Notes under the pieces: generated by a model | Told to the model about the DNA's origin: nothing | What the model saw: only the letters and a program-made list of their open reading frames with translations | Database searches by the model: none | Shown here: piece by piece, positions 6,858 to 36,739 of the stretch | Layout of the letters: every line of letters begins with the position of its first letter | Numbering within the stretch: position 1 is the first letter of the stretch | Program-made: the position numbers and the translations under genes | Sequence record: DRR723986_3491 | Length of the DNA stretch: 48,330 nucleotides | Reading direction: 5' to 3' (one strand)

Positions 6858-8771
6858 ATGAAAATAGTCCACTTGCTGAAAACGAGCCGCTATTTTCTAA
6901 GTAAGCTACTGCTGGCAGCGATCCTCGTTAGTATATTCGTTCCGTTTAGCCCAGCCATGCCCGCAGATGGACTGGATTTCTCATGGGTTTTCGCTCTCAA
7001 CGCGGCTCACGCTGCAGAGCTTGTTTTCGGAAGGGATCTTGTCTTTTCCTTCGGCCCATACAGCGCCGTCTATACAAAGAGCTACCACCCGGCAACCGAT
7101 TTCCTGATGCTTTTTGGAGGCGCAGTAGTTGCACTTGGGTACTTTTTCTCACTAGCAATAATTGCAGGCCAAAAACCAGCCGGGCACGAACGGTTCGACT
7201 GGATATACATCCTGGCACTCGCAGTCGCGTTCGGCTGCGCGAGTATCTCACACGATGCCCTGCTGGCTTACTTGCCACTGCTCGTTGCATTTGCCTTACT
7301 TGGCCAATGGCACCAAAAACCAACACCTCCTGATACTTTGGTCAAGCGGCACCAGATTTATTGGCTCCTTTGGATTCCGATTGGGCTCTTGCCGCTGATC
7401 AAGAGCTCGCTACTCCCCTCTTGCCTCGCGAGCATTGTGATCGTGAGCACGTATTGTTTACTGAAACGAAAATGGGCGACGGCACTACTTCCTGTGGCCA
7501 TCACTGCGAGCTCACTGGTTATCTTCTGGCTAGTGGCAAATCAGCCCACAGGCGCCTTGCCATTGTTTTTCAAAAATTCGCTATTAGTAATTGCCGGCTA
7601 TTCCTCTGCTATGGCACTGCCGGGCAATAGAGGCGAGATCGTTGCCTTTGTATTGGTTGCAAGTATTTGCTTGTTCATCTTGCTCACACAGCGTCAACCG
7701 CAAAGACTCTACCGCTACCTTCTACTGGTGCTGTTATCCGCCTATTATTTCCTAATGTTTAAGGCCGCTTTCGTTCGTCACGATGGGCACGCCCTGATTG
7801 GTGCGGGCGCCCTCTTACTGACGGCAATCCTTTTCCCGATATCGCTCGGGTTTCGCACCGCGATAGTGCAGCTATCGATATCGATAATCGCGTACATTTA
7901 CATCGGCTCTGCTTACACAGACCACAGCCCGAAAAGTTTGGTCACGAATATACAGCGCAACTTGACTTCATCCAGCATGGGGATCTACCACCGCCTTACC
8001 AATCCAAACTGGCTAACCTCACGTTATGAAAACGCCGTCACACGTATAGCCAATACTTATCCATTACCTGAACTTCCCGGCACTTCGGATATCTACGCAT
8101 ACCAACAATCACGCTTACTCGCCAGTGCGAATAACTGGAATCCAAGACCAGGCTTGCAAAGCTATGCTGCCTACACTGAAAGCTTATCCAGACTTGATCG
8201 AAGCCATCTCGCCGGGTCTACCGCGCCAGATAACATCTTTTTCCGGGTTGAAACAATAGACCGGCGCTTTCCACCTCAAGATAGTGGTTCGAGCTGGCCA
8301 CTAATCCTTCAGAGATATCGACCCGCGGGGGTTTACGGTGAATACGTTCATCTTAGCCTCAATGATGCGACAAGCAGTGAAGTATCAACGCTTCCGCTCG
8401 GTAATTACGGGTGCCGACTGGGCCAGCGCATACCAGTACCGAGGACGGAGCTTCCGCTTTACGTAAAATTCGATTTCCACAAAACCTTGATAGGCCACCT
8501 ATCGGAGACTTTGTTCAAAATTTCTCCACTGCTGATTGTAGTGGACACCCTTTCGGGGGAGAGACACATATTCAGACTTGTAGCTGGCTTGGCGAAAGCT
8601 GGCTTTGTTCTTTCACCGATGGTGCTGAACACAAATGACTTTCTGGGCTTGGCTACCGGGGAAAAGCCACCTGAATCCAGGTCAGTGACTGCCATCACTG
8701 TTCTCCCCTATGGATGGAGTGGATTCTGGAAAGAAGAATGCGCGATAGCGTTTGAAGCGCTACAGAAGTGA
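6858..8771 (+). CDS. polytopic membrane protein, putative GT-C glycosyltransferase (pentofuranosyltransferase candidate)
   Basis: About 11-13 hydrophobic segments in the first ~350 aa. GLDFSW...GRDLVFSFGPY acidic motif in the loop after TM1; soluble C-terminal domain. Visibly lower GC than its flanks. Confidence 0.55.
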   Translation: MKIVHLLKTSRYFLSKLLLAAILVSIFVPFSPAMPADGLDFSWVFALNAAHAAELVFGRDLVFSFGPYSAVYTKSYHPATDFLMLFGGAVVALGYFFSLAIIAGQKPAGHERFDWIYILALAVAFGCASISHDALLAYLPLLVAFALLGQWHQKPTPPDTLVKRHQIYWLLWIPIGLLPLIKSSLLPSCLASIVIVSTYCLLKRKWATALLPVAITASSLVIFWLVANQPTGALPLFFKNSLLVIAGYSSAMALPGNRGEIVAFVLVASICLFILLTQRQPQRLYRYLLLVLLSAYYFLMFKAAFVRHDGHALIGAGALLLTAILFPISLGFRTAIVQLSISIIAYIYIGSAYTDHSPKSLVTNIQRNLTSSSMGIYHRLTNPNWLTSRYENAVTRIANTYPLPELPGTSDIYAYQQSRLLASANNWNPRPGLQSYAAYTESLSRLDRSHLAGSTAPDNIFFRVETIDRRFPPQDSGSSWPLILQRYRPAGVYGEYVHLSLNDATSSEVSTLPLGNYGCRLGQRIPVPRTELPLYVKFDFHKTLIGHLSETLFKISPLLIVVDTLSGERHIFRLVAGLAKAGFVLSPMVLNTNDFLGLATGEKPPESRSVTAITVLPYGWSGFWKEECAIAFEALQK

Positions 8772-8777
8772 TCCACC

Positions 8778-8810
8778 ATCTGGCAAAACCGACTGTTTTA
8801 CCAGATTTTC
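8778..8810 (+). terminator. inverted repeat after the inserted membrane gene; weak terminator or processing hairpin
   Basis: ATCTGGCAAAAC-cgact-GTTTTACCAGAT (11/12 pairs) followed by TTTC. Confidence 0.35.
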
Positions 8811-8907
8811 GCCCTGAACAACCCGTCGCTATACGTAACCAGTTCCATGGATTGGTAACTCTATTTCCAGTACCCTACACCTGTTCAACACTCGAGATTT
8901 CATTGCC

Positions 8908-10182
8908 GTGTTCTATAGACGACTTTTACTTCTAGCAGGCCTTGCCGCGACCCTGCTGGTCACTCCGCTGGCCAATGCCGCCACCGAACTGCTCGATCAG
9001 GTGGTGGCCATCGTCGACGACGATGTGATCACCGCCAGTGAACTGCGCGAGCGCCTGAACATGGTCACCGAGGCGCTGCAGGCCCGCGGCGGCGAGCTAC
9101 CGCCGGAAGATGAACTGATCCGGGAGACCCTGGACCGGCTGATCCTGGAGAGCATCCAGCTGCAGATGGGTAACCGGGTGGGTGTGCGCATCTCCGACGC
9201 CCAGCTCGACGCTTCCATGCAGCGCATCGCAAGTCAGAACCGCATGAACCTAGACCAGTTCAAGGTCGCGCTGGAGGCCGAGGGACGCTCCTACGCCGGG
9301 ATGCGCGAACAGATCCGCCGCGAGATGGTGCTGCAGCGGGTACAGGCGGGCAACGTCAACCGGGAGGTGGAAATTACCGACCAGGAAGTGAGCAACTTCA
9401 TGGCCACCGAGGAAGGCCAGAAGATGACCCAGCCCGAGTACCGGATCATCCAGGCCCTGCTGGAAGTCTCACCTGATGACAGTGAGTCCGAGACCGCCAA
9501 CAAGGAAGCCTTCGTCGATCGCCTGCTGGCCCAAATCGACAACGGCGCCAGCTTCGAGGAAGTGATCAGCACCGCGGGACGCTACAGCTTCACCGGCGGC
9601 GACCTGGGCTGGCGCAAGCTCAACGACCTGCCCAGCATGTTTACCGACATCGCCCCAACCCTGGAGCAGGGTGAAACCGGCAAGGTGAAGAGCGCCAGTG
9701 GGTTCCACCTGGTGTTCATGGCGGCGAAGCGCGGCGGGCAGCAGATCGTGCCCCAGACCAAGGCGCGGCATATCCTGGTCAGCCCCTCCGAAATCCTGAC
9801 TGACAAGGAAGCCGAGGAACTGGTAGCTGAACTGAAAGCGCGCGCCGAAGCGGGCGAGGATTTCGCCGAGCTGGCCAGGGAGTACTCAGAAGACATCGGC
9901 TCCGCCCAGGAAGGCGGCGACCTGGGCTGGACCAGTCCGGGACAGATGGTGCCCGAGTTCGATAACACCATGGACTCCACCGAGATCGGCGAGATTTCCG
10001 ATCCGGTGCGCAGCCAGTTTGGCTGGCACATTGTCGAGGTGACAGACCGGCGCGAGAAAGACATGACCGTGGAAGCCCAGCGCTCGGTTATCCGCGAATA
10101 CCTGCACAGCCGCAAGTACGAAGAAGAGCTGGACGCCTGGCTGCGCAAGATCCGCGACGAAGCCTTCGTCGACATCAAGTAA
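8908..10182 (+). CDS. surA: periplasmic chaperone/PPIase SurA
   Basis: [14 protein letters not shown]-terminus, two parvulin domains (GGDLGW twice, ARHIL, SQFGWHI) and C-terminal IRDEAFVDI. Confidence 0.96.
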
Positions 10183-10187
10183 GCCCC

Positions 10188-11165
10188 ATGGCCACCCCGC
10201 GCATCGCTATCACCGCCGGGGAACCGGCGGGGATCGGGCCGGACATCCTGCTGGCGATTGCGCAACAGGCCTGGCCCGCCGAGTTGGTCGCAATAGCCGA
10301 CCAGGGCCTGCTGGCGCGGCGAGCCGCACTGCTGGGGCTGCCGATCACCCTGCGCCCCTTTGACCCCGCCAGGGAACCTCGCCCGCACCAGCCGGGTGAG
10401 CTGGCGATAGCACCCGTAAACCTGGCAGAGACCGAGACCCCCGGCAGGCTCAATCCCCGCAACGCGGCCTACGTTGTCGCTACCCTGCAACAGGCGGTGG
10501 ACGGCTGCCTGGCGGGAGACTTCGCGGCCATGGTCACAGCGCCGGTGCAGAAGTCGATCATCAATGACGCGGGCATCCCGTTCTCGGGCCACACCGAATT
10601 CCTCGCCGCCGCGACCCAGACCACACGAGTGGTCATGCTGCTGGCCGCCGGCGAGCTGCGGGTCGCGCTGGCCACCACCCACCTGCCCCTGTCGGCGGTG
10701 CCCGCGGCGATCACCCCCACCCTGCTACGGGAAACACTGACCATTCTGCACGCCGACCTGCATGACAAGTTCGGCATCACCCAACCACGCATCGCGGTGC
10801 TGGGCCTGAACCCCCACGCCGGTGAAGGCGGCCACCTCGGGCGCGAGGAACTGGACACCATCATCCCGACCCTGGACGCCCTGCGAAATGAGGGCATGCG
10901 ACTACAGGGCCCACTGCCCGCCGATACCGCCTTCAACCCAAAAGTGCTGGATAACAACGACGCCGTGCTCGCCATGTACCACGATCAGGGCCTGCCGGTA
11001 CTCAAGTATGCGGGCTTCGGCCAGGCGGTGAATGTAACCCTGGGGCTACCGATCGTACGCACCTCGGTGGATCACGGGACGGCGCTGGAGCTGGCGGGGA
11101 CAGGTGAGGCGCAGGCGGGGAGTTTGGGGGCGGCGTTGGAGCTGGCTATTCGGTTAACAGCCTGA
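10188..11165 (+). CDS. pdxA: 4-hydroxythreonine-4-phosphate dehydrogenase
   Basis: [30 protein letters not shown] and RTSVDHGTA motifs. Confidence 0.97.
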
Positions 11166-11247: not shown

Positions 11248-12687
11248 ATGATGACTGATCTCCCTCCCCTGGCAGTAGACCTGGACGGCACGCTGGTGCT
11301 GACCGATACCCTGCACGAATCGGCGATCAAGCTCATTCGGGTTCGCCCTCTCGCGCTATTCCAATTGCCCTTCTGGCTGCTGCGCGGCAAAGCCTACCTC
11401 AAGGAGCGGCTAAACGCGCTCGTCCTGCCCGCTGCCGACCTGCTGCCTTACAATGAACCCCTCGTCGACTGGTTGCGCGAACAGAAGGCCAGCGGCAGGG
11501 AGCTGGTGCTGTGCACTGCCGCCAGCGAAGCGATGGGTAACGCTGTTGCGGCGCATACTGGTTTGTTTGACGAGGTGATAGCCAGCAGCGCAGACCACAA
11601 TATGAAGGGTGCCAACAAACGGGCTGCCCTGCAGGAGCGGTTCCCGGATACCGGCTTTAGCTACGCCGGCGATACAGGCGCTGACCTGGCTGTCTGGGAC
11701 GGCGCCCAGAGTGCCGTCGTTGTCGGCAATTCCACGTCGTTTACTGAAAAAGTAGCCAGCAGGTGCACGGTGGAGCATACCGTTCCCACGCCGCAGCGCG
11801 GGCTCAAAGACCTGCTGAAGTTGCTCCGGGTTCACCAGTGGGCAAAGAACACGCTTATCTTCATGCCGGCGGTAGCGGCTCACCAGATCAGTACGGACAA
11901 TCTACTGACCCTGTGCGTGGCCTTCCTGGCGTTCAGCCTGTGCTCATCCTCCGTGTACATCGCCAACGACCTGCTGGACCTCGAGAATGATCGCCGCCAT
12001 CCACGCAAACGAGAACGGCCTTTTGCCTCCGGAAAGCTCGCCATCACCGGGGGACTGTTACTGCTGCCACTGCTGCTTGTCAGCAGTGCTTTGCTCTCGT
12101 TCTACACAGGACAGGCCTTCGCCTGGGCACTGCTGACCTACTTTGTGCTCACATCGCTGTATTCGCTGTTCCTGAAAAAAATTGTGTTGCTGGACTGCCT
12201 GACCCTGGCCGCACTCTATACCCTGCGCATTATCGCCGGTGCGGCAGCGCTCTCCCTCGGCATCTCATTCTGGATACTGTCATTCTCGGTGTTCCTGTTC
12301 CTCTCGCTGGCCTTCGTGAAGCGCTACGTTGAATTGGAGGAAACGACCCAGGAGGCGGGTACCGATGTCTTGCATGGGCGCGGCTACCGCAGCGGCGACA
12401 GCAGCATTATCCAGGGCATGGGCATCGCCGCGGGCTTTGTGGCGGTGCTGGTACTGGCGCTCTATATCGACAGTACCGCAAGTGCACAACTCTATCGGGC
12501 GCCCGAGATCGTCTGGGGCGCTGTGGCTGTCCTGCTCTACTGGATCAGCTGGATCTGGTTGAAAGCCCACCGCGGCGAAATGCACGACGACCCAGTCGTC
12601 TTCGCAGTAACTGATCCCATAAGCCTGGTTTGCGGCTTTCTGTTCGTCGCGGTCGTGTTTCTCGGGACAACGGGATTCAGCCTGTGA
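11248..12687 (+). CDS. HAD phosphatase-UbiA fusion; polyprenyl-phosphate phosphoribosyltransferase (Rv3806c/NoeC-like)
   Basis: N-terminal HAD motif DLDGTL and YAGD. C-terminal UbiA domain with LRVHQWAKN, YIANDLLDLENDRRHPRKRERPFASG, AFVKRYVEL and HDDPVVFA. Confidence 0.88.
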   Translation: MMTDLPPLAVDLDGTLVLTDTLHESAIKLIRVRPLALFQLPFWLLRGKAYLKERLNALVLPAADLLPYNEPLVDWLREQKASGRELVLCTAASEAMGNAVAAHTGLFDEVIASSADHNMKGANKRAALQERFPDTGFSYAGDTGADLAVWDGAQSAVVVGNSTSFTEKVASRCTVEHTVPTPQRGLKDLLKLLRVHQWAKNTLIFMPAVAAHQISTDNLLTLCVAFLAFSLCSSSVYIANDLLDLENDRRHPRKRERPFASGKLAITGGLLLLPLLLVSSALLSFYTGQAFAWALLTYFVLTSLYSLFLKKIVLLDCLTLAALYTLRIIAGAAALSLGISFWILSFSVFLFLSLAFVKRYVELEETTQEAGTDVLHGRGYRSGDSSIIQGMGIAAGFVAVLVLALYIDSTASAQLYRAPEIVWGAVAVLLYWISWIWLKAHRGEMHDDPVVFAVTDPISLVCGFLFVAVVFLGTTGFSL

Positions 12688-13979
12688 AACTGTCATCCTG
12701 GGGTCGCCTGAGTCACGGCGATTACCCAATCCATTTGCCCGGGCGCGACAACGCCCCCCTCCCGGATGCGGACCGCTCGCCTGGTGCAATCGCATTCGGT
12801 ATGGGCCGCAGCTACGGCGACGCCTGTCTGAACCCGGGTGGCACGATTTGCCTGACACGCTCACTGGACCGCTTTATCCACTTCGACTCCAGCAGCGGCG
12901 AGTTGGTCTGCGAGGCGGGAGTCACCCTGGGGGAGATCCAGACCCATTTCGCTCCCCAGGGCTGGCTGCTTCCAGTGACCCCGGGTACGCAGTTCGTAAC
13001 CGTGGGAGGCGCTATCGCCAACGATGTGCACGGCAAGAATCACCATCGGGCGGGCTGTTTTGGCAATCACCTTAACTGGCTGCTGCTTGATCGCAGCGAC
13101 GGGCACTCACTGCGCTGTTCCATCACGGAGAACGCCGACTACTTCGCAGCGACCATCGGCGGTCTCGGGCTCACCGGAATAATCAAGCAGGCATCGCTTA
13201 CCCTGCGCCCCGTGAACTCTGCCTGGATGGACACGGAAACCATCGCATTCGACGACCTCGACACCTTCTTCGGCCTGAGTGCGTCGTCGGAGGTCGACTG
13301 GGAATACGCCGTCTCCTGGATCGACTGCAGCTCGGCAAAACGCCAGCGCGGTATCTTTATCCGCGCGAACCACAGTGACGATGGCCGGATGGAGGCGCCG
13401 CCTGGGCGCAAACTGACTGTACCCTTCAGCCCTCCGCTGTCACCGGTCAACCGGCTTACGGTGGCCGCGTTCAACGAACTCTACTACCGAAGCCAGCAAC
13501 GAAAGCCGGGGCTCGCAGCAAGCCACTACAGCGATTACTTCTATCCGCTGGATGGCATCCTCCACTGGAATCGACTCTATGGCCCAAAGGGCTTTCACCA
13601 GTATCAACTGGTTGTGCCGCACGCGGATGGAGCCACAATCATTAAAGCGCTGATCGAGACGGTCTCCCGCTCCGGAATGGGCTCGTTTCTGTCGGTGCTG
13701 AAAACCTTCGGCGACGTGCCTTCACCCGGCATGCTGAGCTTCCCCATGCCGGGCGTCACACTTGCCCTCGATTTTCCCAACCGGGGAGAGCGATCAGAGC
13801 GGCTTTTCCGTCAGCTCGATGCACTGGTGGCCGAGGCCGGCGGACGCCTGTACCCGGCCAAGGATGCCCGCATGCCGGCTTCTTTGTTTGCCGCAGGTTA
13901 TCCAGAACTACAGACATTTCTGGGTCTGCGGGACAGCGGCCTCAGTTCCGGTCTCTCGCGCCGCCTCGTGGGGAGCTGA
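12684..13979 (+). CDS. DprE1-like FAD-dependent polyprenylphosphoryl-ribose 2'-oxidase
   Basis: GMGRSYGD, PVTPGTQFVTVGGAIANDVHGKNHH, LSFPMPG..LDFP and GGRLYPAKD motifs. GTG start overlaps the upstream stop (GTGA). Confidence 0.88.
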   Translation: MKLSSWGRLSHGDYPIHLPGRDNAPLPDADRSPGAIAFGMGRSYGDACLNPGGTICLTRSLDRFIHFDSSSGELVCEAGVTLGEIQTHFAPQGWLLPVTPGTQFVTVGGAIANDVHGKNHHRAGCFGNHLNWLLLDRSDGHSLRCSITENADYFAATIGGLGLTGIIKQASLTLRPVNSAWMDTETIAFDDLDTFFGLSASSEVDWEYAVSWIDCSSAKRQRGIFIRANHSDDGRMEAPPGRKLTVPFSPPLSPVNRLTVAAFNELYYRSQQRKPGLAASHYSDYFYPLDGILHWNRLYGPKGFHQYQLVVPHADGATIIKALIETVSRSGMGSFLSVLKTFGDVPSPGMLSFPMPGVTLALDFPNRGERSERLFRQLDALVAEAGGRLYPAKDARMPASLFAAGYPELQTFLGLRDSGLSSGLSRRLVGS

Positions 13980-13985: not shown

Positions 13986-14729
13986 GTGAAACATATCGTC
14001 ATTGTTGGTGCCACCTCCCTGATTGCAGAGCACTGCGCTCGACTGTGGCTCGCTGAGGGGCCGGCGGAGCTGACCCTGGTCGCACGAAGCGCAGAGCGGG
14101 CCAGCGCCATCAGCGCCGACCTGCAGGTTCGCAGCCCAGGTTCCACCATTCACACGGTGGCCACCGACTTCCTCGACCCGGAAGCTATTGCGGAAGTCGT
14201 CACCGGAATCGATGCGCGATCACCGATAGACGTGGCACTGATCGCCCACGGCTCACTGCCTCACCAGGATGCCTGCCAGAACGATCTCAAGGCAGCCGCG
14301 ACCGAACTCCACATCAACGGCGTCTCGCCGGTGCTGTTTGCCGAGGCCTTCGCCGGCCCCATGCAGGCTCGCGGGGCCGGCCAGGTTGCGCTCATCGGCT
14401 CAGTTGCCGGTGATCGAGGCCGCAAGTCCAATTACGTGTATGGCTCCGCAAAGGGCATGATCGAGCGTTATGCGCAGGGTCTGCAACACCGCCTTGCGGC
14501 TACGGATGTGAGCGTGTCACTGATCAAGCCCGGGCCCACACGCACCCCCATGACTACTCACCTTGACGAGAGCGGCCCAGCACTGGCTGACGTGGAATCG
14601 GTGGCACGGGCAATCGTTACTGCATTGAACAAGCGCCGGCCCGTCATCTATGCCCCTGGCAAGTGGTGGTTAATCATGATGGTTATCCGTCACCTGCCGC
14701 GCTTCATCTTTAATCGGTTGGATATCTAA
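13986..14729 (+). CDS. DprE2-like short-chain reductase
   Basis: GATSLIA and GSVAGDRGRKSNYVYGSAK motifs, typical of the DprE2-type SDR; directly after the DprE1 homolog. Confidence 0.85.
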   Translation: MKHIVIVGATSLIAEHCARLWLAEGPAELTLVARSAERASAISADLQVRSPGSTIHTVATDFLDPEAIAEVVTGIDARSPIDVALIAHGSLPHQDACQNDLKAAATELHINGVSPVLFAEAFAGPMQARGAGQVALIGSVAGDRGRKSNYVYGSAKGMIERYAQGLQHRLAATDVSVSLIKPGPTRTPMTTHLDESGPALADVESVARAIVTALNKRRPVIYAPGKWWLIMMVIRHLPRFIFNRLDI

Positions 14730-26061: not shown

Positions 26062-26062
<1 letters not shown>

Positions 26063-28251: not shown

Positions 28252-29046
28252 ATGCCCTTAATGCTCAAAGCTCTCTGGCAGTACCGCCACTTTATATTGC
28301 GCTCGATACGGAACGAATTCACGTCACGCTTTGCTCGCAGCAAGTTCGGTGGAGCATGGGCAATCCTCAACCCATTGGCGCAAGTGGCGATTTATGCCTT
28401 GATACTATCTAATTTACTCCAAGCTAAACTCCCCGGTATCGACAGCCAGTATTCATTTGCGATTTACCTGACTGCGGGCATGCTCTGCTTCAACTTGTTT
28501 TCTGAAATAGTATCGCGCGGCCTTAACGTATTTATTGCCAATGGCAACTTGATAAAGAAGGCCATGTTCCCCAAGGTGGTATTACCCGCGATCATGGTTG
28601 GCAGCTGCTTACTGGACAACGTTCTGTTATTTGTGGCCATATTAATCATCTTCGCACTACTGGGGCATATGCCGGGCATTGAGATAGTCTGGCTGCCGTT
28701 GCTGGCCGCGGTAATCACAACCTTCGCCTTGGCAATAGGCCTTATCCTCGGCATTCTTAACGTATTCTTGCGGGATATCGCACAGGTAGTACCTATCATC
28801 TTACAAGTCCTATTCTGGTTCACCCCAATCGTATACCCAGTATCAATCATACCGGAGAGGTACCATCACTACCTGTATCTCAATCCGCTGTATCCACTGG
28901 TGAGTTCTTACCAGAACATCTTGGTTTTTTCGGAAAAACCTGAACTGTTATCTGTTGCCGTGATAACGCTGGCGAGCCTGCTATTGTTGATACTTGCCCT
29001 TTTCCTGTTCTTCAGGGCATCGGAAGAAATGGCTGACGTGTTATGA
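28252..29046 (+). CDS. wzm: O-antigen ABC transporter permease
   Basis: Six TM segments, G..WAILNPL, RDIAQ and FWFTPIVYP...LNPL motifs. Confidence 0.92.
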   Translation: MPLMLKALWQYRHFILRSIRNEFTSRFARSKFGGAWAILNPLAQVAIYALILSNLLQAKLPGIDSQYSFAIYLTAGMLCFNLFSEIVSRGLNVFIANGNLIKKAMFPKVVLPAIMVGSCLLDNVLLFVAILIIFALLGHMPGIEIVWLPLLAAVITTFALAIGLILGILNVFLRDIAQVVPIILQVLFWFTPIVYPVSIIPERYHHYLYLNPLYPLVSSYQNILVFSEKPELLSVAVITLASLLLLILALFLFFRASEEMADVL

Positions 29047-30329
29047 CGGCGCTTAGTGTGCGGAATATAGGCAAGTCATTCCGGAGTTACCGCTCCGAGC
29101 TCGACCGTTTTGCGGGCTGGTTTGGACTGCGATCAAAGTCCGCAGAAGAGCATTGGATTTTGCGTAATATTAATTTTGATGTTCACCCTGGCGAGGCCAT
29201 CGGCATCGTCGGCCAGAATGGCGCAGGGAAAAGCACCTTACTAAAAATCATAACCGGAACGCTTTCCCCGACTGAAGGCTCTGTACAAATCAATGGCAGA
29301 GTGGCCGCGATTCTGGAATTGGGCATGGGCTTTAACGGTGAACTCACAGGAAGAGAAAATGCGTTTCATGCCGCAGGACTCATGGGCTTTGATCAGCAAC
29401 AGATCAAACACGTTATGCCGGAGATCGAAGAATTTGCTGAGATTGGCGAATACTTCGATGAGCCCATGCGCATATACTCCAGTGGCATGCATATGCGTGT
29501 GGCCTTCGCTGTTGCAACGGCTTACCGACCTGAATTGCTTATTATCGATGAAGCTTTGTCCGTTGGTGACGCTGCCTTTGCTCGAAAGTGCTTTCAGCGT
29601 ATCGAGCAGTTTCTCGAATCAGGGACCACGCTACTTTTCGTCAGCCACGATGTAGAATCTGTAAAGAGGCTCTGTGAAAAAGCAGTGTTCATCAAGAGCG
29701 GCGAACTCTCTAAATTTGGTAACGTGAAGGCTGTTTGTGATGCTTACGAAAAAAGCCTTTTTTGCGGAGTAGAACATGAAGAAATCAGCGACGAAGAGAA
29801 CACTGCCCTTATTGATCCGTCTCTTATTTCGAATACTATAGAAAACAAATATGGAGATGGAGCGGCTCGCATCGAAGTTGTTAAATTTTTTGATCAGCTG
29901 TCCCGACCAATCAATCTGCTATCTTCTCAGAAAGAATTTCAGGTAGTTATGGAGGTATTTTTTGTTGATGACTGCCGTGGCGTTGTGTTTGGGATGATGC
30001 TAAAAACAATAGAGGGAATACCGGTCTACGCGACACACACCACGGAGCATGACGTTAGGAACTGTTTCAGAGCCGGCGAGCGCATAAAAATGACTTTTTT
30101 CCTCGAGAATAATTTGGCCCCGGGTGTCTACTGCCTGAATGTTGGGGTTACACATAGTGTGTTAAACGAAAATCGGCACGCTGAACGCCGGCTAGACTGT
30201 TTAATGCTGAAGGTTACATGCAACTCAGATCAAAGAGTTGTCTCCGGTTATGCGAATTTGCGGGGCCAATTCATTCTAAGTAGCTCACCATCGACAATTC
30301 ATTCATCGCTGGCATCGGGCGAGCCTTGA
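29043..30329 (+). CDS. wzt: O-antigen ABC transporter ATPase with C-terminal carbohydrate-binding module
   Basis: GQNGAGKST, YSSGM, IIDEALSVGD and VSHD motifs; ~170 aa Wzt_C-type extension (YGDG.ARI...LAPGVY). Confidence 0.92.
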   Translation: MTALSVRNIGKSFRSYRSELDRFAGWFGLRSKSAEEHWILRNINFDVHPGEAIGIVGQNGAGKSTLLKIITGTLSPTEGSVQINGRVAAILELGMGFNGELTGRENAFHAAGLMGFDQQQIKHVMPEIEEFAEIGEYFDEPMRIYSSGMHMRVAFAVATAYRPELLIIDEALSVGDAAFARKCFQRIEQFLESGTTLLFVSHDVESVKRLCEKAVFIKSGELSKFGNVKAVCDAYEKSLFCGVEHEEISDEENTALIDPSLISNTIENKYGDGAARIEVVKFFDQLSRPINLLSSQKEFQVVMEVFFVDDCRGVVFGMMLKTIEGIPVYATHTTEHDVRNCFRAGERIKMTFFLENNLAPGVYCLNVGVTHSVLNENRHAERRLDCLMLKVTCNSDQRVVSGYANLRGQFILSSSPSTIHSSLASGEP

Positions 30330-31027
30330 TGATCCTTGTAATAGCAGGAATGTACAGGAGTGGGTCGACGTTTACTTTCAATGTAGCGAAAGAGCTACTT
30401 GGTGGTGCTGAAAAGACCACCTGGGAAAGCGCAAATTCTATCAGTGACCAATATCAACCTGACAATGAAAGTGCTAAACACATATTAAAATCGCATGAGC
30501 CGGACGAGACAATCACAAAAAAAATCGTCACCGGTGAAACAAAATGTATTTGCACGATAAGAAGACCGGAAGATGCAGCTCTGTCCTTAATGAGAATTTT
30601 TGATTTTGATCTAGACGTGTCCTGCGACATGATCGCCCGGTGGTGTAAATGGCACCGAAAAGTTGCCCCTTACTGCCTTAACATAGAGTTCCAAGAGATT
30701 GAAACTGAAGCTAGAAATACTATTAGAAAAATAAACGAATTTTTGAAAACGGACCGGCCCTTCATTGAGCAATATCGTATCTGGAGGAATTACCGTAAAT
30801 CTGCAGTATTGTCTTATAGCAATGCAATAGATCGAGCATCAGAAAGAACAGAGGACTTTGGTTTCAGTTTTTATGATCGTGAAACATTCTTTCATCGACA
30901 GCATGTTACGTCGTTAAAGTCGGCTAAGGCTATAGAGCATCTCACAGCCCATCAGCTTGCCGCCATGCGATCAAAATTCGAGAAATATATCGATCATACT
31001 GGAGATTACAAATGGCCCGAATCATAA
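30326..31027 (+). CDS. sulfotransferase-like P-loop protein
   Basis: N-terminal AGMYRSGST (5'-PSB-like loop), KSH, and IRRPEDAALS (3'-PB-like R...S). Confidence 0.6.
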   Translation: MMILVIAGMYRSGSTFTFNVAKELLGGAEKTTWESANSISDQYQPDNESAKHILKSHEPDETITKKIVTGETKCICTIRRPEDAALSLMRIFDFDLDVSCDMIARWCKWHRKVAPYCLNIEFQEIETEARNTIRKINEFLKTDRPFIEQYRIWRNYRKSAVLSYSNAIDRASERTEDFGFSFYDRETFFHRQHVTSLKSAKAIEHLTAHQLAAMRSKFEKYIDHTGDYKWPES

Positions 31028-31499
31028 GGCATGGTCCATGTAATCTTTAGAAAGGCAAAGTCCATTCTTGGTTATAGATTTGCTTGTATCTGGTAGAGGA
31101 GCAATGAAAAATATAGATACCAAGGGTTAGCACCATCCGATGCGGTTTGGGTTTGAAACACTTAATGCAGCGGCGAGGATTTTTAACATAGTTAACACTG
31201 ATCAACCTCTTTTTGCCCGCAGTCAGTGGAACGATGCAAAGTTTAGTATTGAGAGAAATGGGATAACGTGAACTTTAATTTTTCTCCGTACTCGTTTATA
31301 GACATACGGCAAGTTATAGAATCTGACTGAAGAAAAACTAGTATGCAGTAGGCTCGTAGGAGGAAGTAGTAACCTTAGGAATAGAAATCTTTACCCTTTC
31401 TCCATTTTTCCTTTTGCTGCACTAACATGCTCCGTCTAGAGAACTGGCTCAAATATAGGTGTATTTCCTTCAAACAGTTGTTCTATTGGATTTTCCATA

Positions 31500-32846
31500 A
31501 TGATAGTTTCCTACGCACAGAATTTCGAAGATATCATGCTCTGGCGAGCACTGAAAGATGTTGAAAACGGCTTCTATATCGACGTCGGAGCAAATGATCC
31601 TGTGGCGCACTCTGTAACCAAATTATTTTACGATTCGGGGTGGCACGGGATAAATATTGAGCCAGTTGAGCAGTGGCATAGTTTACTCGTGAAGGACAGA
31701 CCACGGGACATAAACCTAAAAATAGCAGCGGGAGACGAGGTGCGGAGTGCGGAATTTTTTGGCTTTCCAGACACAGGATTAAGCACTCTCGATGAGACCG
31801 TAGCACAGCGGCATCGGACCAATACCAACCTCGTTATGCAGCAGCAATCTGTCGATGTAAGGCCTCTGGCAGAGATATGCGCACACTATTGCCCTATACA
31901 AATTCATTTCTTAAAGATAGATGTTGAAGGCGCGGAAGGTGACGTTCTAAAAGGGATGGACTTCAAAAGATTCCGCCCCTGGATCTTGATAATTGAATCA
32001 AATCTACCGCTGCAAGCAAGTCGCACTAAACAACCCTGGGAAGAAGCGCTTGAACGAGATGCATATAGTTTTGTTTACTATGATGGGCTGAATAATTTCT
32101 ATATTGCAAACGAAAAGTACACAAGCCTGCGAGATCACTTCTCCGCACCGCCTAACGTTTTCGATAGTTTTAAACCACACGAACTAGTAGTTTCTGAGTT
32201 GATGCATAAGGAATTAGAAGATCAATATCGCTCTCTGCAAGAAAATACAGATCGAGAAATTAAGGCGCTGGTAGAGAGACTAGATTATGTGTCAGGCGAG
32301 TTTACAGCAAATAAATCGGAGAAAGAGAAATTAAGAGCAGAGTTCAATCTCATCTACCATAAAAGTTTGCGAGAAAATGGTCAGTTAAGAAACGAAGTCG
32401 ATCGCTTAACTCATAGCTGGAGAAAAACTCTGGCAGATAACGATTCGTTGAGAATGCAAATTTCCGCGCTGGCCAAAAGAGATTCAGAATCTCGTATACA
32501 GCTAGATGCTATGTTAGGCAGCCTTTCCTGGAAGGTAACTTCACCCTTGCGGCGGATTGCACTGCTTTTGGCAACGCGTTACCACGAACTACGTCTGCAG
32601 AGCTCTCGCGTGTTTGACAGGATTCTCCGTTGGGGGATGGGGCATTCGCGCTTGGTAAAGCTCGTTCATTTTTTTCTGAAACCCTTTCCCGGATCAGAGC
32701 TGGCTCTAACTAGGAGAGCAGCAAGCGCAATGGGTGAGACTACGGTTAACAGCCCACCAGCGGTATGGGAGCTTAACGATCGAGCCAACAGGATTTATGC
32801 TGCGTTAAAGACAGCGGTCGAGACAAAGAGAGATCAGCTGCAGTGA
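31500..32846 (+). CDS. FkbM-family methyltransferase with coiled coil (WbdD-like chain terminator architecture)
   Basis: SYAQNFED, YIDVGAND, GINIEP and LKIDVEGAE motifs; heptad-rich helix ending in SLSWKVTSPLR. Confidence 0.82.
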   Translation: MIVSYAQNFEDIMLWRALKDVENGFYIDVGANDPVAHSVTKLFYDSGWHGINIEPVEQWHSLLVKDRPRDINLKIAAGDEVRSAEFFGFPDTGLSTLDETVAQRHRTNTNLVMQQQSVDVRPLAEICAHYCPIQIHFLKIDVEGAEGDVLKGMDFKRFRPWILIIESNLPLQASRTKQPWEEALERDAYSFVYYDGLNNFYIANEKYTSLRDHFSAPPNVFDSFKPHELVVSELMHKELEDQYRSLQENTDREIKALVERLDYVSGEFTANKSEKEKLRAEFNLIYHKSLRENGQLRNEVDRLTHSWRKTLADNDSLRMQISALAKRDSESRIQLDAMLGSLSWKVTSPLRRIALLLATRYHELRLQSSRVFDRILRWGMGHSRLVKLVHFFLKPFPGSELALTRRAASAMGETTVNSPPAVWELNDRANRIYAALKTAVETKRDQLQ

Positions 32847-34201
32847 TTCGATTGCTAATCGACATGCAAGGAGCACAGACTGATAGCCGATTCCGCGGCA
32901 TAGGCAGATATGTGACAAGCTTCGTTCACGCGATCATAGACTCCCAAGATGATATAGAGGTCTTCTTGGCGGTAAATGGAAATCTCGCAGAAGGGGCAGA
33001 GTATGTGCGAGATAGATTCCGTGGGGCTAGTCCAAAGATCAAGATCACTGAGTGGTTTGCTCCTGATCAGATTGCTTTTGACTATTGGAGGAGGGACTGC
33101 GCTGAACTTATAAAGAAGCACTTTTTCCAATCAATAAACCCTGACTTTGTTTTGATTACTAGTTTATTTGAAGGCCTTCCCTCCTTGGTTTCGATTGATG
33201 ACTTCGATCCACAAATTCCCTCGGGCGTTATTGTCTATGATCTGATTCCAGCTACTGATCCAGGTAGATACCTGGATCACGACCCCGCCTATAAAGAAGA
33301 CTATTACCGCAAGTTGAGCATGCTCCCAAAGGCGAGTGCGCTGTTTACAATATCTGAATATGCCAAGTCGGAAATAGTTAACGTTACTGAATTGTCAAAT
33401 GAACGTGTTTTCAATATATCTGCGGCAGTCAGCGAAAAGCTAATCTCCTCAAGCGCGGGAACGGTTGGCGCGCCATCCGAACTACCTCCGCGTCTGTTAG
33501 ATCGCGAGTTTTTGATGTACGCCGGGGGCTTCGAGCATCGAAAGAACGTTGAGATACTCGTCCGATCCTACGCTCTTTTAGATGAAGAAGCCCGAGAACT
33601 CTACCCGCTGGTTTTAGCCGGAAAAATCGAATTTGGCCGCAAAAAGGAATTAATGGAACTCGCAAGGGAGTTCGGTGTTAAGAGGAACGAGGTTATATTC
33701 ACAGAATTTTTAAGTGATGACTCGTTAATGTGGCTCTACCGAAAGTGCCACTTGTTTATATTCCCCTCACTTCATGAAGGTTTTGGCTTGCCCGTGTTGG
33801 AGGCCATGTCTTTAGGAGCTCCCGTAATCGCTTCAAACTCGTCCAGCCTTCCAGAAATTGTTGCGCTCCAGAGTGCTCTTTTTGATCCTACTGATGAAGT
33901 AGCATTGGCCAAAAAGATAAATAGAGTCCTCACCGATAGCAACTATCGCAACGACCTACTTAATAATTCGGCAGACAGGTCACAATATTTTTCATGGAGC
34001 ATCAGCGCCGGTAAAGCACTCCAGGTTATCTCTCGTCTTGTTGAAAATTTTCGTGACCCCAATGGTTCACCGGCTAATTTTGACTTTTTTAAGCTGTGTA
34101 ACGACATCGCGTCAATTGATATAGCACCTCCATCTGAGGAAGACTTGCTAGAAACATCGTTTCAGATTGAGAGAACATTCCATGACCACATTATTTTCTA
34201 A
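32843..34201 (+). CDS. GT4 glycosyltransferase (WbdA/WbpX-like, single domain)
   Basis: IDMQGAQTDSRFRGIGRY N-terminus as in WbdA, YDLIP, RKN and PSLHEGFGLPVLEAM motifs. Confidence 0.85.
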   Translation: MIRLLIDMQGAQTDSRFRGIGRYVTSFVHAIIDSQDDIEVFLAVNGNLAEGAEYVRDRFRGASPKIKITEWFAPDQIAFDYWRRDCAELIKKHFFQSINPDFVLITSLFEGLPSLVSIDDFDPQIPSGVIVYDLIPATDPGRYLDHDPAYKEDYYRKLSMLPKASALFTISEYAKSEIVNVTELSNERVFNISAAVSEKLISSSAGTVGAPSELPPRLLDREFLMYAGGFEHRKNVEILVRSYALLDEEARELYPLVLAGKIEFGRKKELMELAREFGVKRNEVIFTEFLSDDSLMWLYRKCHLFIFPSLHEGFGLPVLEAMSLGAPVIASNSSSLPEIVALQSALFDPTDEVALAKKINRVLTDSNYRNDLLNNSADRSQYFSWSISAGKALQVISRLVENFRDPNGSPANFDFFKLCNDIASIDIAPPSEEDLLETSFQIERTFHDHIIF

Positions 34202-35024
34202 TAGAGTGCCTGACTTTAGTCGAGCAAAAGATCCTCATACCTTTGGATCCTGCCTCTGCCGTGAGCAGCATTTTCACATGCCGTTGTACACATACTGGTG
34301 CCGGGCCTTGAAAGAGGCTCCACGTTTTCACAGAAAACAATGGGAGTTTGTATTCATTTGTCAGTCACTATATGAGAGAGGCTATCTAAAAGAGGGCTTG
34401 TCTGCCTTGGGCTTTGGCGTCGGAAGAGAACCTTTGGCGTCGTTGATGGCAAGTTATGGAATCAGTGTGCTAGCAACAGATCTGGAGTTTGAGAAAGCGG
34501 CGGAGCTTGGCTGGGTTGCTACAGACCAACATGCAACTGCAGTTGGTCACCTTAACGAACAGGGTATCTGCTCAGAGGATCTTTTTAAGAAAAATGTGTC
34601 GTATCAGAGCGTTAATATGAACGATATTCCTTCGGACATCGGGTCGTTCGATATATGCTGGTCGTCTTGTGCTTTCGAACATTTGGGTTCAATTCAGCTG
34701 GGACTGGATTTTGTTGTCAATTCGAGCCGGCTTCTCAAACCTGGCGGAATTGCTGTCCACACTACGGAATTCAATCTCACTTCTAATGATCACACTCTGG
34801 ATAACAACCCCAGCTTTGTCATTTTCAGGAAGAAAGATATTGAGTTGTTGCAAGAGCGACTCGTTTCTGAGGGTTTTGACGTTGAAGTTATAGATTACAG
34901 TTCGGGACATGATGAGTTGGAGAGCTATATAGACCTACCACCGTACGTGGATGAGCCACATTTGCGCCTGGAACTCGCCGGTAAGTATAGCTCGACATCA
35001 ATAGGGTTGATCATCAGAAATTGA
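34182..35024 (+). CDS. class I SAM-dependent methyltransferase
   Basis: HRKQWEF, LGFGVGREP, WSSCAFEHLG and LKPGGIAVHTTE motifs. ATG 34182 preferred over TTG 34167. Confidence 0.75.
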   Translation: MTTLFSNRVPDFSRAKDPHTFGSCLCREQHFHMPLYTYWCRALKEAPRFHRKQWEFVFICQSLYERGYLKEGLSALGFGVGREPLASLMASYGISVLATDLEFEKAAELGWVATDQHATAVGHLNEQGICSEDLFKKNVSYQSVNMNDIPSDIGSFDICWSSCAFEHLGSIQLGLDFVVNSSRLLKPGGIAVHTTEFNLTSNDHTLDNNPSFVIFRKKDIELLQERLVSEGFDVEVIDYSSGHDELESYIDLPPYVDEPHLRLELAGKYSSTSIGLIIRN

Positions 35025-35042: not shown

Positions 35043-35067
35043 AGGTCGAGTAAAGGCTGCTCGACCT
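35043..35067. terminator. hairpin between convergent genes
   Basis: AGGTCGAGTA-aaggc-TGCTCGACCT, a 10-bp stem with one G-U pair, 18 nt after the stop; no strong U tract. Confidence 0.35.
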
Positions 35068-35234
35068 GTTCAGAACTTAAGCTGATTGAGGCTCTGCAGA
35101 CGATTGCTAAATATCAAGGTCGAAGATATCTGTTGGAATGCAGATAAAGGAGGAAGTGACGTTCTGGATGAACGTACTCTGGTCAGAGCTTGAACCATTA
35201 ATCCAAACAAAGTACTGAGAATGAACAACCCGCT

Positions 35235-35966
35235 TCACTCGCGCTTAATCCTTTTTGGCTTTCCAAGAGCAGACTTATACTTATCAAGGACCCGTCTTGT
35301 CTCACCTTGCGCTTCGATCCTTCCCTGATCAATCCACACCGCCCGGTCACAGATCTCGCTGATCTGGTTGTCCATATGTGACACGAACACCACGGTTTGC
35401 TCCCCCGAGATGCGCTGCTTCATGGCGGCTTCCGCCTTGCCCCTGAAGGCGGCATCGCCAACGCTGAGCACCTCATCGATCAGCAGGATGTCCACGTGGG
35501 TCACCAGCGCGGCGGAAAAGCCGAGGCGCGAGCGCATCCCTGAGGAATAGGTCTTCACCGGCTCATCGAAGGACGCACCCAACTCGGAAAAGGCCTGGAT
35601 CTCGTCGAGATAGCCCTCAGCCTGCGCCGTGCTGCAGCCCTGCAAAATAGCGGACAGCCGGGCGTTGTCCCGGCCCGACAGCTCCGGCTTGAAGCCCAGG
35701 CCCAGGGACAACAGCGCAGCGGTCTTGCCGGGGTGCCGCCAAACCTCCCCTCGGGTTGGTGCCAGAATGCCGGCCATCAGGCGCAGCATCGTGGTTTTAC
35801 CCACGCCGTTGCGACCGATAATCCCCAGTGTTTCACCCTCGTACACCTGCAGTGACACATCGTCCAGTACCGTATGGACACCGCTCTCGTAAGCGCCACC
35901 CCGGGCCTGGTAACTGTGGCTCACGTGTTCCAGTGCGAGCATAACGGTTGCCTGTGTATCGCTCAT
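35235..35966 (-). CDS. polysaccharide ABC transporter ATPase without CBM (Wzt/KpsT/TagH-like)
   Basis: GRNGVGKTT, YSSGM, LIDEVLSVGD and VSH motifs; 243 aa. Confidence 0.88.
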   Translation of the reverse strand: MSDTQATVMLALEHVSHSYQARGGAYESGVHTVLDDVSLQVYEGETLGIIGRNGVGKTTMLRLMAGILAPTRGEVWRHPGKTAALLSLGLGFKPELSGRDNARLSAILQGCSTAQAEGYLDEIQAFSELGASFDEPVKTYSSGMRSRLGFSAALVTHVDILLIDEVLSVGDAAFRGKAEAAMKQRISGEQTVVFVSHMDNQISEICDRAVWIDQGRIEAQGETRRVLDKYKSALGKPKRIKRE

Positions 35967-36739
35967 CAGGTGATCGCCTTCAGCGCCAGGTACTGGCTCT
36001 TCTGCCGCATCAGCAGGACCATGCCCGCAAACAGGGCGGCAAACGCGAGCCCAATCACCGCCAGGTGCAGCAGGTCGGGGGCCAGGCCTTCGATCAGCAC
36101 CTGCCGGTAGGCATCAAGGATGAAAGCCAGCGGGTTGAGGGCCAGCACCAGATCCGTTTTTGCCGGGTCACCCAGGCCGCGCACATCCCAGAAGATGCCC
36201 GAGGTGAACAGCAGGAAGGTCATCGCCAGCGAAATCAGCATGCTGAAATCGCGGACCACGCATACGAGAAAAGCACCGACCATCGCGCAGCCGCAGATCA
36301 TCAGGTAGTTCACCAAAATGATCGGCAGCACCCAGAGCCAGGTAAAAGAAGGCATATACCCCTTGACCATCAGCACCCCGGCCAGCAGGGCGAACACCGC
36401 CGCCTGCTTATACAGGCCTTCCTGGATAACCGCCATGGGGAACAAGGTCTTGGGTACGTGGATTTTGCCTATCAGGCCCCGGCTGCCGACGATGCTATTC
36501 GAGGCGGCGGTCACGCTCTTGGAAAACCAGATAAAGCTGAGCTTGCCGACCATCAGGAAGATGAGGAAGTCGGCGCGCCGTGAGTCGAGCACGATGTTGA
36601 ACACCACGTAGAACACCGCCACATACAGCAGCGGCTCCAGCACCCACCAGATGTAGCCAAGAAAATAGCGCGACGCATCGGCCCGCAGGTTCATGCGAGC
36701 CAGGGTGTCCATCAGGCGGAAGAAGTGGCTGAGCGTCAT
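35966..36739 (-). CDS. polysaccharide ABC transporter permease (Wzm/TagG-like)
   Basis: LGYIWWVLEPL, RDF, FTSGIFW and LNPL motifs; coupled to the ATPase gene (TGATG). Confidence 0.88.
   Translation of the reverse strand: MTLSHFFRLMDTLARMNLRADASRYFLGYIWWVLEPLLYVAVFYVVFNIVLDSRRADFLIFLMVGKLSFIWFSKSVTAASNSIVGSRGLIGKIHVPKTLFPMAVIQEGLYKQAAVFALLAGVLMVKGYMPSFTWLWVLPIILVNYLMICGCAMVGAFLVCVVRDFSMLISLAMTFLLFTSGIFWDVRGLGDPAKTDLVLALNPLAFILDAYRQVLIEGLAPDLLHLAVIGLAFAALFAGMVLLMRQKSQYLALKAIT

Follow-up and report, generated by a model that had tools for sequence, protein, structure and literature searches.

The common polysaccharide antigen of Pseudomonas aeruginosa is a D-rhamnan made with gmd, rmd, wzm, wzt, the WbpX/Y/Z enzymes and methyltransferases. 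To our knowledge, its locus contains no polyprenyl-phosphate donor synthases and no genes for glycosyltransferases (GTs) of the GT-C type. Here we describe a locus in sequence record DRR723986_3491, a stretch of 48,330 nucleotides that is called the window throughout. It joins genes for a predicted D-rhamnose polymer to two different periplasmic glycosylation systems and a second exporter. We interpret the region as a mosaic surface-polysaccharide island of four separable modules from an uncultured member of the Halieaceae. The product is most likely an O antigen, a reading that we hold at somewhat better than even confidence. The locus thus offers a marine, uncultured case of two periplasmic systems in one O-polysaccharide island of the ATP-binding cassette (ABC) transporter type.

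Two groups of described systems are close to parts of this island. The O1/O2 antigens of Citrobacter youngae have a D-rhamnose/mannose backbone that is made through gmd/rmd and GT4 enzymes; a WbdD-like enzyme with a coiled coil caps it, and Wzm/Wzt with a carbohydrate-binding module (CBM) exports it (Kelly et al., PNAS 2024, PMC11127046). An alpha-pentofuranose is added in the periplasm by a PRP-PPPRS protein (phosphoribose phosphatase plus polyprenyl-phosphate phosphoribosyltransferase), a small flippase and a CBM-bearing GT-C, the founder of family GT136. A short-chain dehydrogenase/reductase (SDR) acts as the epimerase that converts ribofuranose to xylofuranose (PMC11127046). Homologs of DprE1/E2 go with arabinofuranose-containing glycans, for example in Stenotrophomonas maltophilia (PMC11127046). 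The same report points to "more elaborate systems" in Xanthomonas citri and Bacillus sp., the significance of which "warrants investigation" (PMC11127046, Fig. S12). These comprise an NAD(P) epimerase, an NAD(P)/FAD oxidoreductase, an FAD (flavin adenine dinucleotide) oxidoreductase, an SDR, PRP-PPPRS, a small multidrug resistance (SMR) transporter and a GT-C. The second group is represented by streptococcal GacI, which makes GlcNAc-P-undecaprenol and is stimulated by the DUF2304 protein GacJ; the GT-C GacL puts GlcNAc on the rhamnan, and Rv3632 has the role of GacJ for PpgS (Rush et al., 10.1101/180810).

The window shares with C. youngae O1/O2 the gmd/rmd genes, GT4 enzymes, Wzm/Wzt with a CBM and a candidate terminator of the methyltransferase type. 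Both loci also have a PRP-PPPRS fusion in which the Asp-rich motif is spaced alike, a putative small flippase, a GT-C, and an SDR epimerase to define the pentose. The putative flippase here is of the GtrA type and not of the ORF14 type, the candidate terminator is FkbM-type and not WbdD-like, and the backbone may be a pure rhamnan. In contrast to C. youngae, the window has a DprE1/2-like pair, a second SDR/flavoenzyme pair and a methyltransferase. The gene labels of the elaborate systems in Fig. S12, as printed there, match this pentose cassette (PMC11127046). The likeness to GacI/GacJ/GacL of Streptococcus pyogenes and PpgS/Rv3632 of Mycobacterium tuberculosis lies in a GT2 synthase beside a three-helix DUF2304 protein, a polytopic GT-C and an ABC-exported rhamnan (10.1101/180810). 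However, the host here is Gram-negative, the rhamnose is D and not L, there is no Wzx-type flippase (GacK), and the cassette adds a GT4 and a divergent GT-A. The 872-residue GT-C of that cassette is extended by three N-terminal helices, a CBM-like domain and one more domain at the C-terminus. At the level of gene content, the antigen of P. aeruginosa resembles the island in its GDP-D-rhamnose supply, three GT4s, ABC export and methyltransferases. A first-pass annotation of the window, made from the letters alone, had known of no characterised locus that combined such features. This is outdated, given that the D-rhamnose/mannose O antigen of C. youngae with its periplasmic pentofuranose system was described in 2024 (PMC11127046). 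Each kind of module already has a studied counterpart or a prior mention; the combination is rare, and it includes two uncharacterised GT-C families.

The window has a GC content of ~65% and carries trpE, murU, amgK, lptD, surA, pdxA, ksgA, apaG, apaH, galE, cca, a sugar dehydrogenase gene, folK, folB, tsaD and dnaG in a conserved order. Two insertions break this order: a single gene between lptD and surA (6858-8771, GC 0.50) and a block of ~26 kb between pdxA and ksgA (11248-37323). The GC content at third codon positions (GC3) is a mosaic, with ~0.82 in the housekeeping genes, 0.63-0.78 at 11.2-28.2 kb and 0.39-0.60 at 28.2-35.0 kb; the low-GC block begins at wzm/wzt. Every gene class listed in the first-pass annotation was found at 6858-36739 on the strand given for it (open reading frames (ORFs), Pfam, NCBIfam). 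That range also takes in the housekeeping genes surA and pdxA (8908-11165). The earlier inventory can be extended by a divergent GT-A (GTA621), the DprE1/DprE2-like genes, the second SDR/flavoenzyme pair, GtrA and a second exporter without a CBM. No tRNA genes are present at the island borders. The closest named homologs of LptD are from Halieaceae, one in a Halieaceae metagenome-assembled genome (MAG) at 70% identity and one in Parahaliea mediterranea at 69%; the highest match, at 77%, is unnamed. From these identities (69-77%), the host is therefore an uncultured member of the Halieaceae without a close sequenced relative.

To place the modules, we compared 29 window proteins with the best 80 of 230 confirmed stretches encoding relatives of the 872-aa GT-C (tblastn, E ≤1e-10, at least 50% coverage, one best assignment per region). 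Tallies over these loci are floors because only 43 of the 80 had full 10-kb flanks; the prefix L marks a locus, here and in the other comparisons. The interval between pdxA and ksgA is a recurrent site for such loci in Halieaceae, and pdxA or ksgA was found no further than 10 kb away in 14 of the 80.

The first module is the D-rhamnan core. The gmd gene (25001-26062, +) scores 469.4 bits with TIGR01472 (cut-off 415) and is followed by an rmd-like gene (26062-26976, +), whose top named PDB relatives are the Rmd enzymes 6x3b and 2pk3. Its product matched 4lw8, a "putative epimerase", at 246 bits, 6x3b (GDP-6-deoxy-D-mannose reductase) at 131 and 2pk3 (Rmd) at 128, with the next classes at 86 or below. 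Together, gmd and rmd are predicted to supply GDP-D-rhamnose, and the stereochemistry of the product is likewise a prediction. Three genes of the island (22747-23898, 26963-28174 and 32843-34201), called WbpZ/WbpY/WbdA-like in the first-pass annotation, are assigned at the level of family GT4. The second, GT4b (+; PF00534, 94.5 bits), is a candidate rhamnosyltransferase, and the order gmd-rmd-GT4b is kept in L001, L033, L037, L040 and L057. From gmd/rmd and the three GT4 enzymes, we infer a D-rhamnan backbone. Export is assigned to the permease Wzm (28252-29046, +; PF01061, 87.9 bits; GC3 0.60) and the ATPase Wzt (29043-30329, +; PF00005, 84.4 bits; GC3 0.48), which carries a Wzt_C domain at residues 267-405 (PF14524, 81 bits against 30.4).

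Three genes near the exporter could modify the chain. An FkbM-type methyltransferase (31500-32846, +; PF05050, 88.3 bits, residues 28-170) is the candidate chain terminator. It has a long helical C-terminal tail of ~230 residues, in which a crude script marks a single heptad-like stretch (295-327) above the 99.9% shuffle threshold, a weak sign of a coiled coil, and homologs adjoin wzt in L037 and L045. A putative PAPS (3'-phosphoadenosine 5'-phosphosulfate)-dependent sulfotransferase (30326-31027, +) is indicated by a Sulfotransfer_1 domain above the family threshold (PF00685, 30.9 bits, cut-off 22). An N-terminal P-loop-like GMYRSGST was spotted by eye; comparison with the PDB gave insignificant matches (E 0.2 or worse), and the gene was found in none of the 80 related loci. 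GT4c (32843-34201, +; PF00534, 113.4 bits) and the methyltransferase MT285 (34167-35024, +; PF08241, 31.5 bits; 0/80 loci) form a variable island end with a GC content of 0.45. These genes suggest a methyl and perhaps sulfate cap that would be read by the CBM of Wzt. The core recurs in collinear order in L037, a Halieaceae isolate, as pdxA, 872-aa GT-C, GT4a, GT2, DUF2304, gmd, rmd, GT4b, wzm, wzt, FkbM and GT4c. Identities there are 81% for gmd, 60% for rmd, 60% for GT4b, 72% for wzm, 51% for wzt, 45% for FkbM and 33% for GT4c. A capped polymer containing D-rhamnose and exported by Wzm/Wzt is quite probable.

The second module is an extended pentose cassette. Its gene at 11248-12687 (+) encodes a fused HAD-UbiA protein of the PRP-PPPRS type (NF006088, 634.5 bits against 351). 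The HAD motif DLDGT is at residue 11, and N240/D241/D244/D248 are spaced as in C. youngae ORF15; this N-D-x-x-D-x-x-x-D spacing is needed for activity (PMC11127046). The next two genes encode a DprE1-like FAD oxidase (12630-13979, +; NF053785, 342 bits, cut-off 500) and a DprE2-like SDR reductase (13986-14729, +; NF053786, 176 bits, cut-off 250). Since these scores are under the equivalog cut-offs, we regard the proteins as clear homologs that would work like DprE1 and DprE2, and do not equate them with these enzymes. They are followed by a second SDR, Epim311 (14729-15664, +; PF01370, 75.8 bits), which resembles NDUFA9-type and epimerase-type SDRs; its GxxGxxG motif is at residue 9 and its YxxxK motif at residue 127. 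Its partner, FADox429 (15666-16955, +; NF005560, 548 bits against 252), is a flavoenzyme of the amine-oxidase/CrtI type. No other part of the cassette is as well conserved as this SDR/flavoenzyme pair (46-70% identity in 11 relatives). In the PDB, the flavoenzyme has 44 matches, to amine oxidases, phytoene desaturase and protoporphyrinogen oxidase, and these mostly cover the N-terminal part that binds FAD. A ring mutase similar to UDP-galactopyranose mutase was considered for this protein; no mutase is among the 44 matches, and this is a weak variant at most. The cassette also has a putative flippase of the GtrA family (16949-17365, +; PF04138, 47.6 bits against 26.1) and a class I methyltransferase, MT228 (17334-18020, +), which is 66% identical in L124. 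MT228, one of the three methyltransferases of the first-pass annotation, belongs to this cassette and not to capping.

The extended cassette of eight genes is seen again in sampled genomes of Halieaceae, Burkholderia, Rhizobium and others. On a plasmid of Burkholderia stagnalis, eight of eight genes are collinear with the pentose set of the window (GT-C 35%, MT228 64%, PRP-PPPRS 44%, DprE1-like 43%, DprE2-like 47%, SDR 65%, flavoenzyme 64% and GtrA 30% identical). DprE1-like genes (E ≤1e-60, 38-56% identity) were found in 67 of 401 sampled genomes of Gammaproteobacteria, one of the 67 being flagged unpublished, so the earlier description of this chemistry as actinobacterial-style does not fit. 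Among 24 DprE1-like loci with flanks, eight also have the SDR, flavoenzyme and GtrA genes, and a ninth ends within the SDR. A search of a phage collection with the PRP-PPPRS protein gave a single partial match, in an unannotated 6.6-kb record.

The gene inserted between lptD and surA (6858-8771, +) encodes TM637, a 637-aa GT-C of an unnamed family with no Pfam or NCBIfam match, which we propose as the pentose transferase. Both GT-C candidates of the first-pass annotation have GT-C folds in AlphaFold (AF2) models, as judged by Foldseek and structure alignment. The predicted local distance difference test (pLDDT) scores are 90.8 for the 637-aa protein and 85.7 for the 872-aa protein, the latter from a 30-sequence alignment. 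The top Foldseek matches of the 637-aa model are EmbB, EmbC, EmbA, AftD, ArnT and AftA (E 1.3e-6 to 4e-3, probability ~1.0); the TM-scores are low, owing to the domain arrangement. Asp40 is invariant in the family and directly follows the first transmembrane (TM) helix, at the place where GT-C enzymes carry the catalytic Asp. None of four conserved motif strings of GT136 (C. youngae ORF12), GDG..EY, W-H-E, N-G-R-Y and P-Y-P-R, read off the printed alignment in Fig. S7, is found in the 637-aa protein. Its C-terminal domain is of mixed alpha/beta structure, unlike that of the C. youngae GT-C. Judged from these printed motifs, the protein probably represents a GT-C family other than GT136. A profile of the family gave no sequence-level relatives in the PDB. 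Common origin of the two GT-Cs was also considered; the hhalign probability was 0.8%, and they are therefore treated as separate families.

There are 283 homologs of the 637-aa GT-C at E ≤0.001, the best of which are 33-38% identical and are all annotated as "hypothetical protein". Their sources include Ralstonia solanacearum, Pseudomonas nunensis, Pantoea and Porticoccaceae. In L143, L149 and L144, homologs stand beside or inside the extended pentose cassette, and in L149, from a Burkholderiales genome, the gene lies between the DprE2-like gene and the SDR gene. A plasmid of Rhizobium tumorigenes has a six-gene cassette followed 2.4 kb further on by a 27%-identical homolog. By gene linkage, the 637-aa GT-C belongs with the pentose genes, from which it is separated in the window by surA and pdxA. 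A widespread unnamed GT-C family is now linked by gene context to the elaborate multi-epimerase pentose cassettes flagged by Kelly et al., and these cassettes can be defined as an eight-gene unit. The family was found in two of 400 genomes of Gammaproteobacteria and four of 401 of Burkholderiales. Both gammaproteobacterial holders have a DprE1-like gene, which is weak evidence at a base rate of 67/401. A test of the association with DprE1 by genome sampling was abandoned, the family being too rare (2/400, 4/401).

The short lptD-surA interval (window 6821-8908), in which this low-GC gene lies, is a second insertion site. In the Halieaceae locus L032, it is occupied by the divergent GT-A of the third module (5305-7191). 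In a small genome of 40% GC (G110), a homolog of the 637-aa GT-C directly follows wecA, wzm and wzt, and the pentose cassette is on a different contig. This locus (L083, G110:C1, 6037-13158) comprises a wecA-like transferase, an ankyrin protein, wzm, wzt without a CBM, the homolog and a 429-aa protein, with no polymerising GT nearby. Other large polytopic proteins with 9-13 predicted TM helices and no Pfam match adjoin DprE genes in L092 (4986-6623), L093 (7948-9720), L132 and L136. Several GT-C families that are still unnamed may therefore act with pentose donors.

Periplasmic decoration of some glycan by the pentose system is quite likely. An alternative is that it glycosylates a protein, a pilin or another envelope component. 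There is a precedent for DprE-dependent protein glycosylation, in which TfpW D-arabinofuranosylates a group IV pilin of P. aeruginosa (10.1101/2020.04.19.049825; PMC11127046). Consistent with this alternative, the cassette adjoins isonitrile genes in B. stagnalis and stands alone in L094 (G002:C2, 8583-14674), which is another contig of the L037 genome. There, six cassette genes lie between genes for TetR, a tyrosine phosphatase, an AurF-like protein and AraC, and no GT-C or glycan gene was found within 8 kb; the genome also yielded no homolog of the 637-aa GT-C. In the window, the 637-aa gene is displaced from the island and differs from it in GC content. However, ORF scans detected no pilin gene in the window, the pentose cassette sits inside a glycan island here, and homologs of the 637-aa GT-C directly follow wzm/wzt (L083) or lie near wzt (L150). 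We consider a protein acceptor very improbable and prefer a glycan.

The second SDR/flavoenzyme pair could epimerise a second carbon, by analogy with DprE1/DprE2. Polyprenyl-P-ribofuranose epimerised at C2 and then C3, in two rounds of oxidation and reduction, would give D-lyxofuranose, possibly O-methylated. Lyxofuranose is described by Kelly et al. as absent from all solved carbohydrate structures (PMC11127046). In a weaker variant, the cassette may supply L-xylose. This sugar is a non-stoichiometric side branch in the O antigen of R. solanacearum (PMC10450222), a species that holds homologs of the 637-aa GT-C (NCBI). That the eight-gene cassette makes and transfers a pentose without a known biosynthetic route, or one never seen in a glycan, is rather unlikely on present evidence; if true, the 637-aa GT-C would found a new CAZy family.

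The third module, which we call cassette B, consists of five genes for a divergent GT-A, a GT-C with a CBM-like domain, a GT4, a GT2 and a DUF2304 protein. It is common in marine Gammaproteobacteria and is uncharacterised. GTA621 (18122-19987, +) is a soluble, divergent GT-A-like protein that itself has no Pfam match. Among 16 aligned members of its family, four match PF00535 (Glycos_transf_2, best E 1.3e-7) and five match DUF6271 weakly; DD and DDD motifs are invariant. A profile of the family gave no relatives in the PDB (one match, E 0.62). A search of the ESM Atlas returned unnamed clusters, plus DUF6271 at 0.84, which serves as a lead only. GT4a (22747-23898, +; PF00534, 125.6 bits) travels with the synthase pair and is, like GTA621, a cytoplasmic GT.

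The GT-C of cassette B, GTC872 (20132-22750, +), also lacks a Pfam match. Its periplasmic beta-sandwich at residues ~515-650 is followed by two more TM helices and a C-terminal alpha/beta domain. In VIA-align, the protein aligned to STT3 with Z 16.9 (root-mean-square deviation (rmsd) 5.6, 467 aligned) and to ArnT with Z 14.7 (rmsd 5.5, 426 aligned). Structure alignment and Foldseek also related it to Pmt4, PglB and Emb proteins. The beta-sandwich resembles CBM29, CBM86, CBM36 and CBM11 (Z ~12, rmsd 2.4-3.1). The invariant Asp137, in a WDAW motif, occupies the position of the GT-C catalytic Asp after the first helix, because the structural alignments begin near residue 100. Among 5.8 billion clustered proteins, 55 homologs were found at E ≤0.001, and the best (46%) come from Halioglobus MAGs.

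Two lipid-donor synthases had been proposed for the island, and both are present: the HAD-UbiA protein of the pentose cassette and a GT2 enzyme of the GacI or PpgS type (GT2pp; 23899-24654, +; PF00535, 61.9 bits). The DUF2304 partner of the latter, of the GacJ or Rv3632 type, begins 3 bases downstream (24658-25032, +; PF10066, 66.7 bits). In NCBIfam, the GT2 matches PpgS best, but with 86 bits it stays far under the cut-off of 370, and its PDB relatives are ArnC enzymes only; we therefore describe it as a polyprenyl-phosphate sugar synthase without an assigned sugar. By analogy with the two characterised enzymes assisted by DUF2304 proteins, the donor is probably an N-acetylhexosamine (HexNAc). 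In 62 of the 80 loci, the GT2 and DUF2304 genes are no more than 10 kb from the 872-aa GT-C homolog, and in 55 GT4a accompanies them; on this basis, we group the 872-aa GT-C with GT2/DUF2304, which GT4a usually joins. The divergent GT-A was found in 16 loci. The GtrA protein of the pentose module or the second exporter might serve flipping for cassette B.

The fourth module is a second Wzm/Wzt-like ABC exporter without a CBM (35235-36739, -; PF00005 and PF01061; NF050108 and NF050109 below their cut-offs). In L001, L002, L033 and L036 it adjoins GTC872 and ksgA. Between this exporter and ksgA lies a gene for a 147-aa protein (36880-37323, +), with a strong heptad signal at residues 73-116 and a C-terminal TM helix. 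This protein gave weak, sub-cut-off matches to the coiled-coil families DUF7310 and CCDC90-like, and a 31% match in one of the 80 loci only.

The general mechanism suggested in the first-pass annotation, with cytoplasmic assembly and capping, export by Wzm/Wzt with its CBM and periplasmic decoration by GT-C enzymes from polyprenyl-phosphate donors, is plausible: all its steps have characterised prototypes, and the domains and motifs that define them were found. The sugars and the GT-C acceptors in the following scheme are proposals built on the domains, folds, motifs and gene linkage described above. Gmd and Rmd would make GDP-D-rhamnose. In the cytoplasm, GT4b, GT4c and perhaps GT4a would use it to build, on undecaprenyl diphosphate, a chain that contains D-rhamnose. 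Modification of the non-reducing end would fall to the FkbM-type methyltransferase, possibly aided by the sulfotransferase or MT285, and the CBM of Wzt would recognise this end for export of the chain by Wzm/Wzt. PRP-PPPRS would convert phosphoribosyl pyrophosphate (PRPP) to polyprenyl-P-ribofuranose, the DprE1/DprE2-like enzymes and the second flavoenzyme/SDR pair would epimerise it, and GtrA would flip the lipid-linked pentose. The 637-aa GT-C would then transfer the pentose to a periplasmic glycan, and MT228 would probably methylate it. GT2/DUF2304 would make a polyprenyl-P-hexose, probably a HexNAc, that the 872-aa GT-C, aided by its CBM-like domain, would transfer in the periplasm. The second ABC exporter would act as a fourth module.

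The modules do segregate among the 80 related loci. Only eight have gmd and rmd, 13 the second exporter pair, five the wzm/wzt pair and one (L004) the PRP-PPPRS/DprE1/DprE2 core. The 637-aa GT-C, second SDR, flavoenzyme, GtrA, MT228, sulfotransferase and MT285 were each found in none. Cassette B and the DprE core are joined in L004 only, and the whole gene set occurs in none of the 80. In L037, L001, L033 and L004, which use the same pdxA/ksgA site, cassette B is 32-72%, gmd 80-81%, rmd 60-61% and wzm 72-74% identical. Within 10 kb, the 637-aa GT-C, the second epimerase pair, the sulfotransferase and MT285 are missing from all four, and the DprE core is in L004 only. The modules are independently mobile, and the island was assembled from them at a fixed chromosomal hot spot. 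The first-pass annotation held that independent segregation of the modules would speak against one decorated rhamnan. Segregation is indeed seen, and this idea is affected in part. In the Halioglobus MAG locus L095 (= L004; 219-10649), the three-gene DprE core adjoins, and is convergent with, the 872-aa GT-C homolog and cassette B.

The main alternative is that two glycans are made: a capped D-rhamnan, and a second, family-conserved glycan that is made or decorated by cassette B and the CBM-less exporter. The tallies for GT2/DUF2304 (62/80) and gmd/rmd (8/80) fit this alternative, as do the 13 loci with the second exporter pair and its contact with the 872-aa GT-C in L001, L002, L033 and L036. 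Elsewhere, the neighbours of cassette B are genes for nonulosonate (L005) or dTDP-rhamnose (L030), or a sulfotransferase and further GTs (L052), and GTA621 and GT4a are cytoplasmic GTs without an assigned step. As cassette B is mostly apart from gmd/rmd, its acceptor need not be a rhamnan. However, cassette B directly joins gmd/rmd or wzm/wzt in L037, L040, L045 and L057, where the 10-kb flanks contain no second exporter. Three-component decoration modules are, moreover, often portable between backbones (PMC11127046). We regard two glycans as a serious but minority possibility, and the placement of both decorations on the same rhamnan as equally tentative.

Several observations weigh against a decorated rhamnan O antigen as the product. 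The DprE1/2-like proteins and the GT2 fall below the NCBIfam equivalog cut-offs, and the coiled coil of the candidate terminator comes from a crude script. The 637-aa family was not found in any of the four Halieaceae genomes searched. In L094, from the closest isolate examined, the pentose cassette is far from the rhamnan locus and has no GT-C neighbour. No Wzx/MOP-family flippase was detected among 28 proteins scanned with Pfam and NCBIfam, and no flippase dedicated to cassette B was seen. This cassette is mostly found away from gmd/rmd and also stands beside other sugar pathways. The window contains no initiating phosphoglycosyltransferase and no WaaL ligase, which makes attachment to lipopolysaccharide (LPS) tentative.

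The last point bears on a further alternative, in which the product is a capsule or exopolysaccharide and not an LPS-linked O antigen. It agrees with the lack of waaL, wecA/wbpL and core genes in the window. Against it, a Wzt with Wzt_C together with a terminator is the pattern of O polysaccharides (PMC11127046), and no KpsC/S/D/E-type or Wza-type export genes are among the 45 window ORFs scanned. In the same scan, no initiating phosphoglycosyltransferase, Wzx, Wzy, WaaL or Kps-type genes were seen. A literature search that was too loose to count as a test brought up no LPS structure from Halieaceae. We judge a capsule or exopolysaccharide to be unlikely and retain the O antigen as the preferred product.

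Two minor features complete the description. The 473 bp between the sulfotransferase and FkbM genes (31027-31500), which hold no ORF of at least 100 aa, lie in the part of the island with the lowest GC content. Just beyond the island, galE (39440-40516, -; TIGR01179, 443 bits) and a nucleotide-sugar dehydrogenase gene (41811-43136, -; TIGR03026, 416 bits) flank cca; they could provide UDP-Gal(NAc) or a uronic acid.

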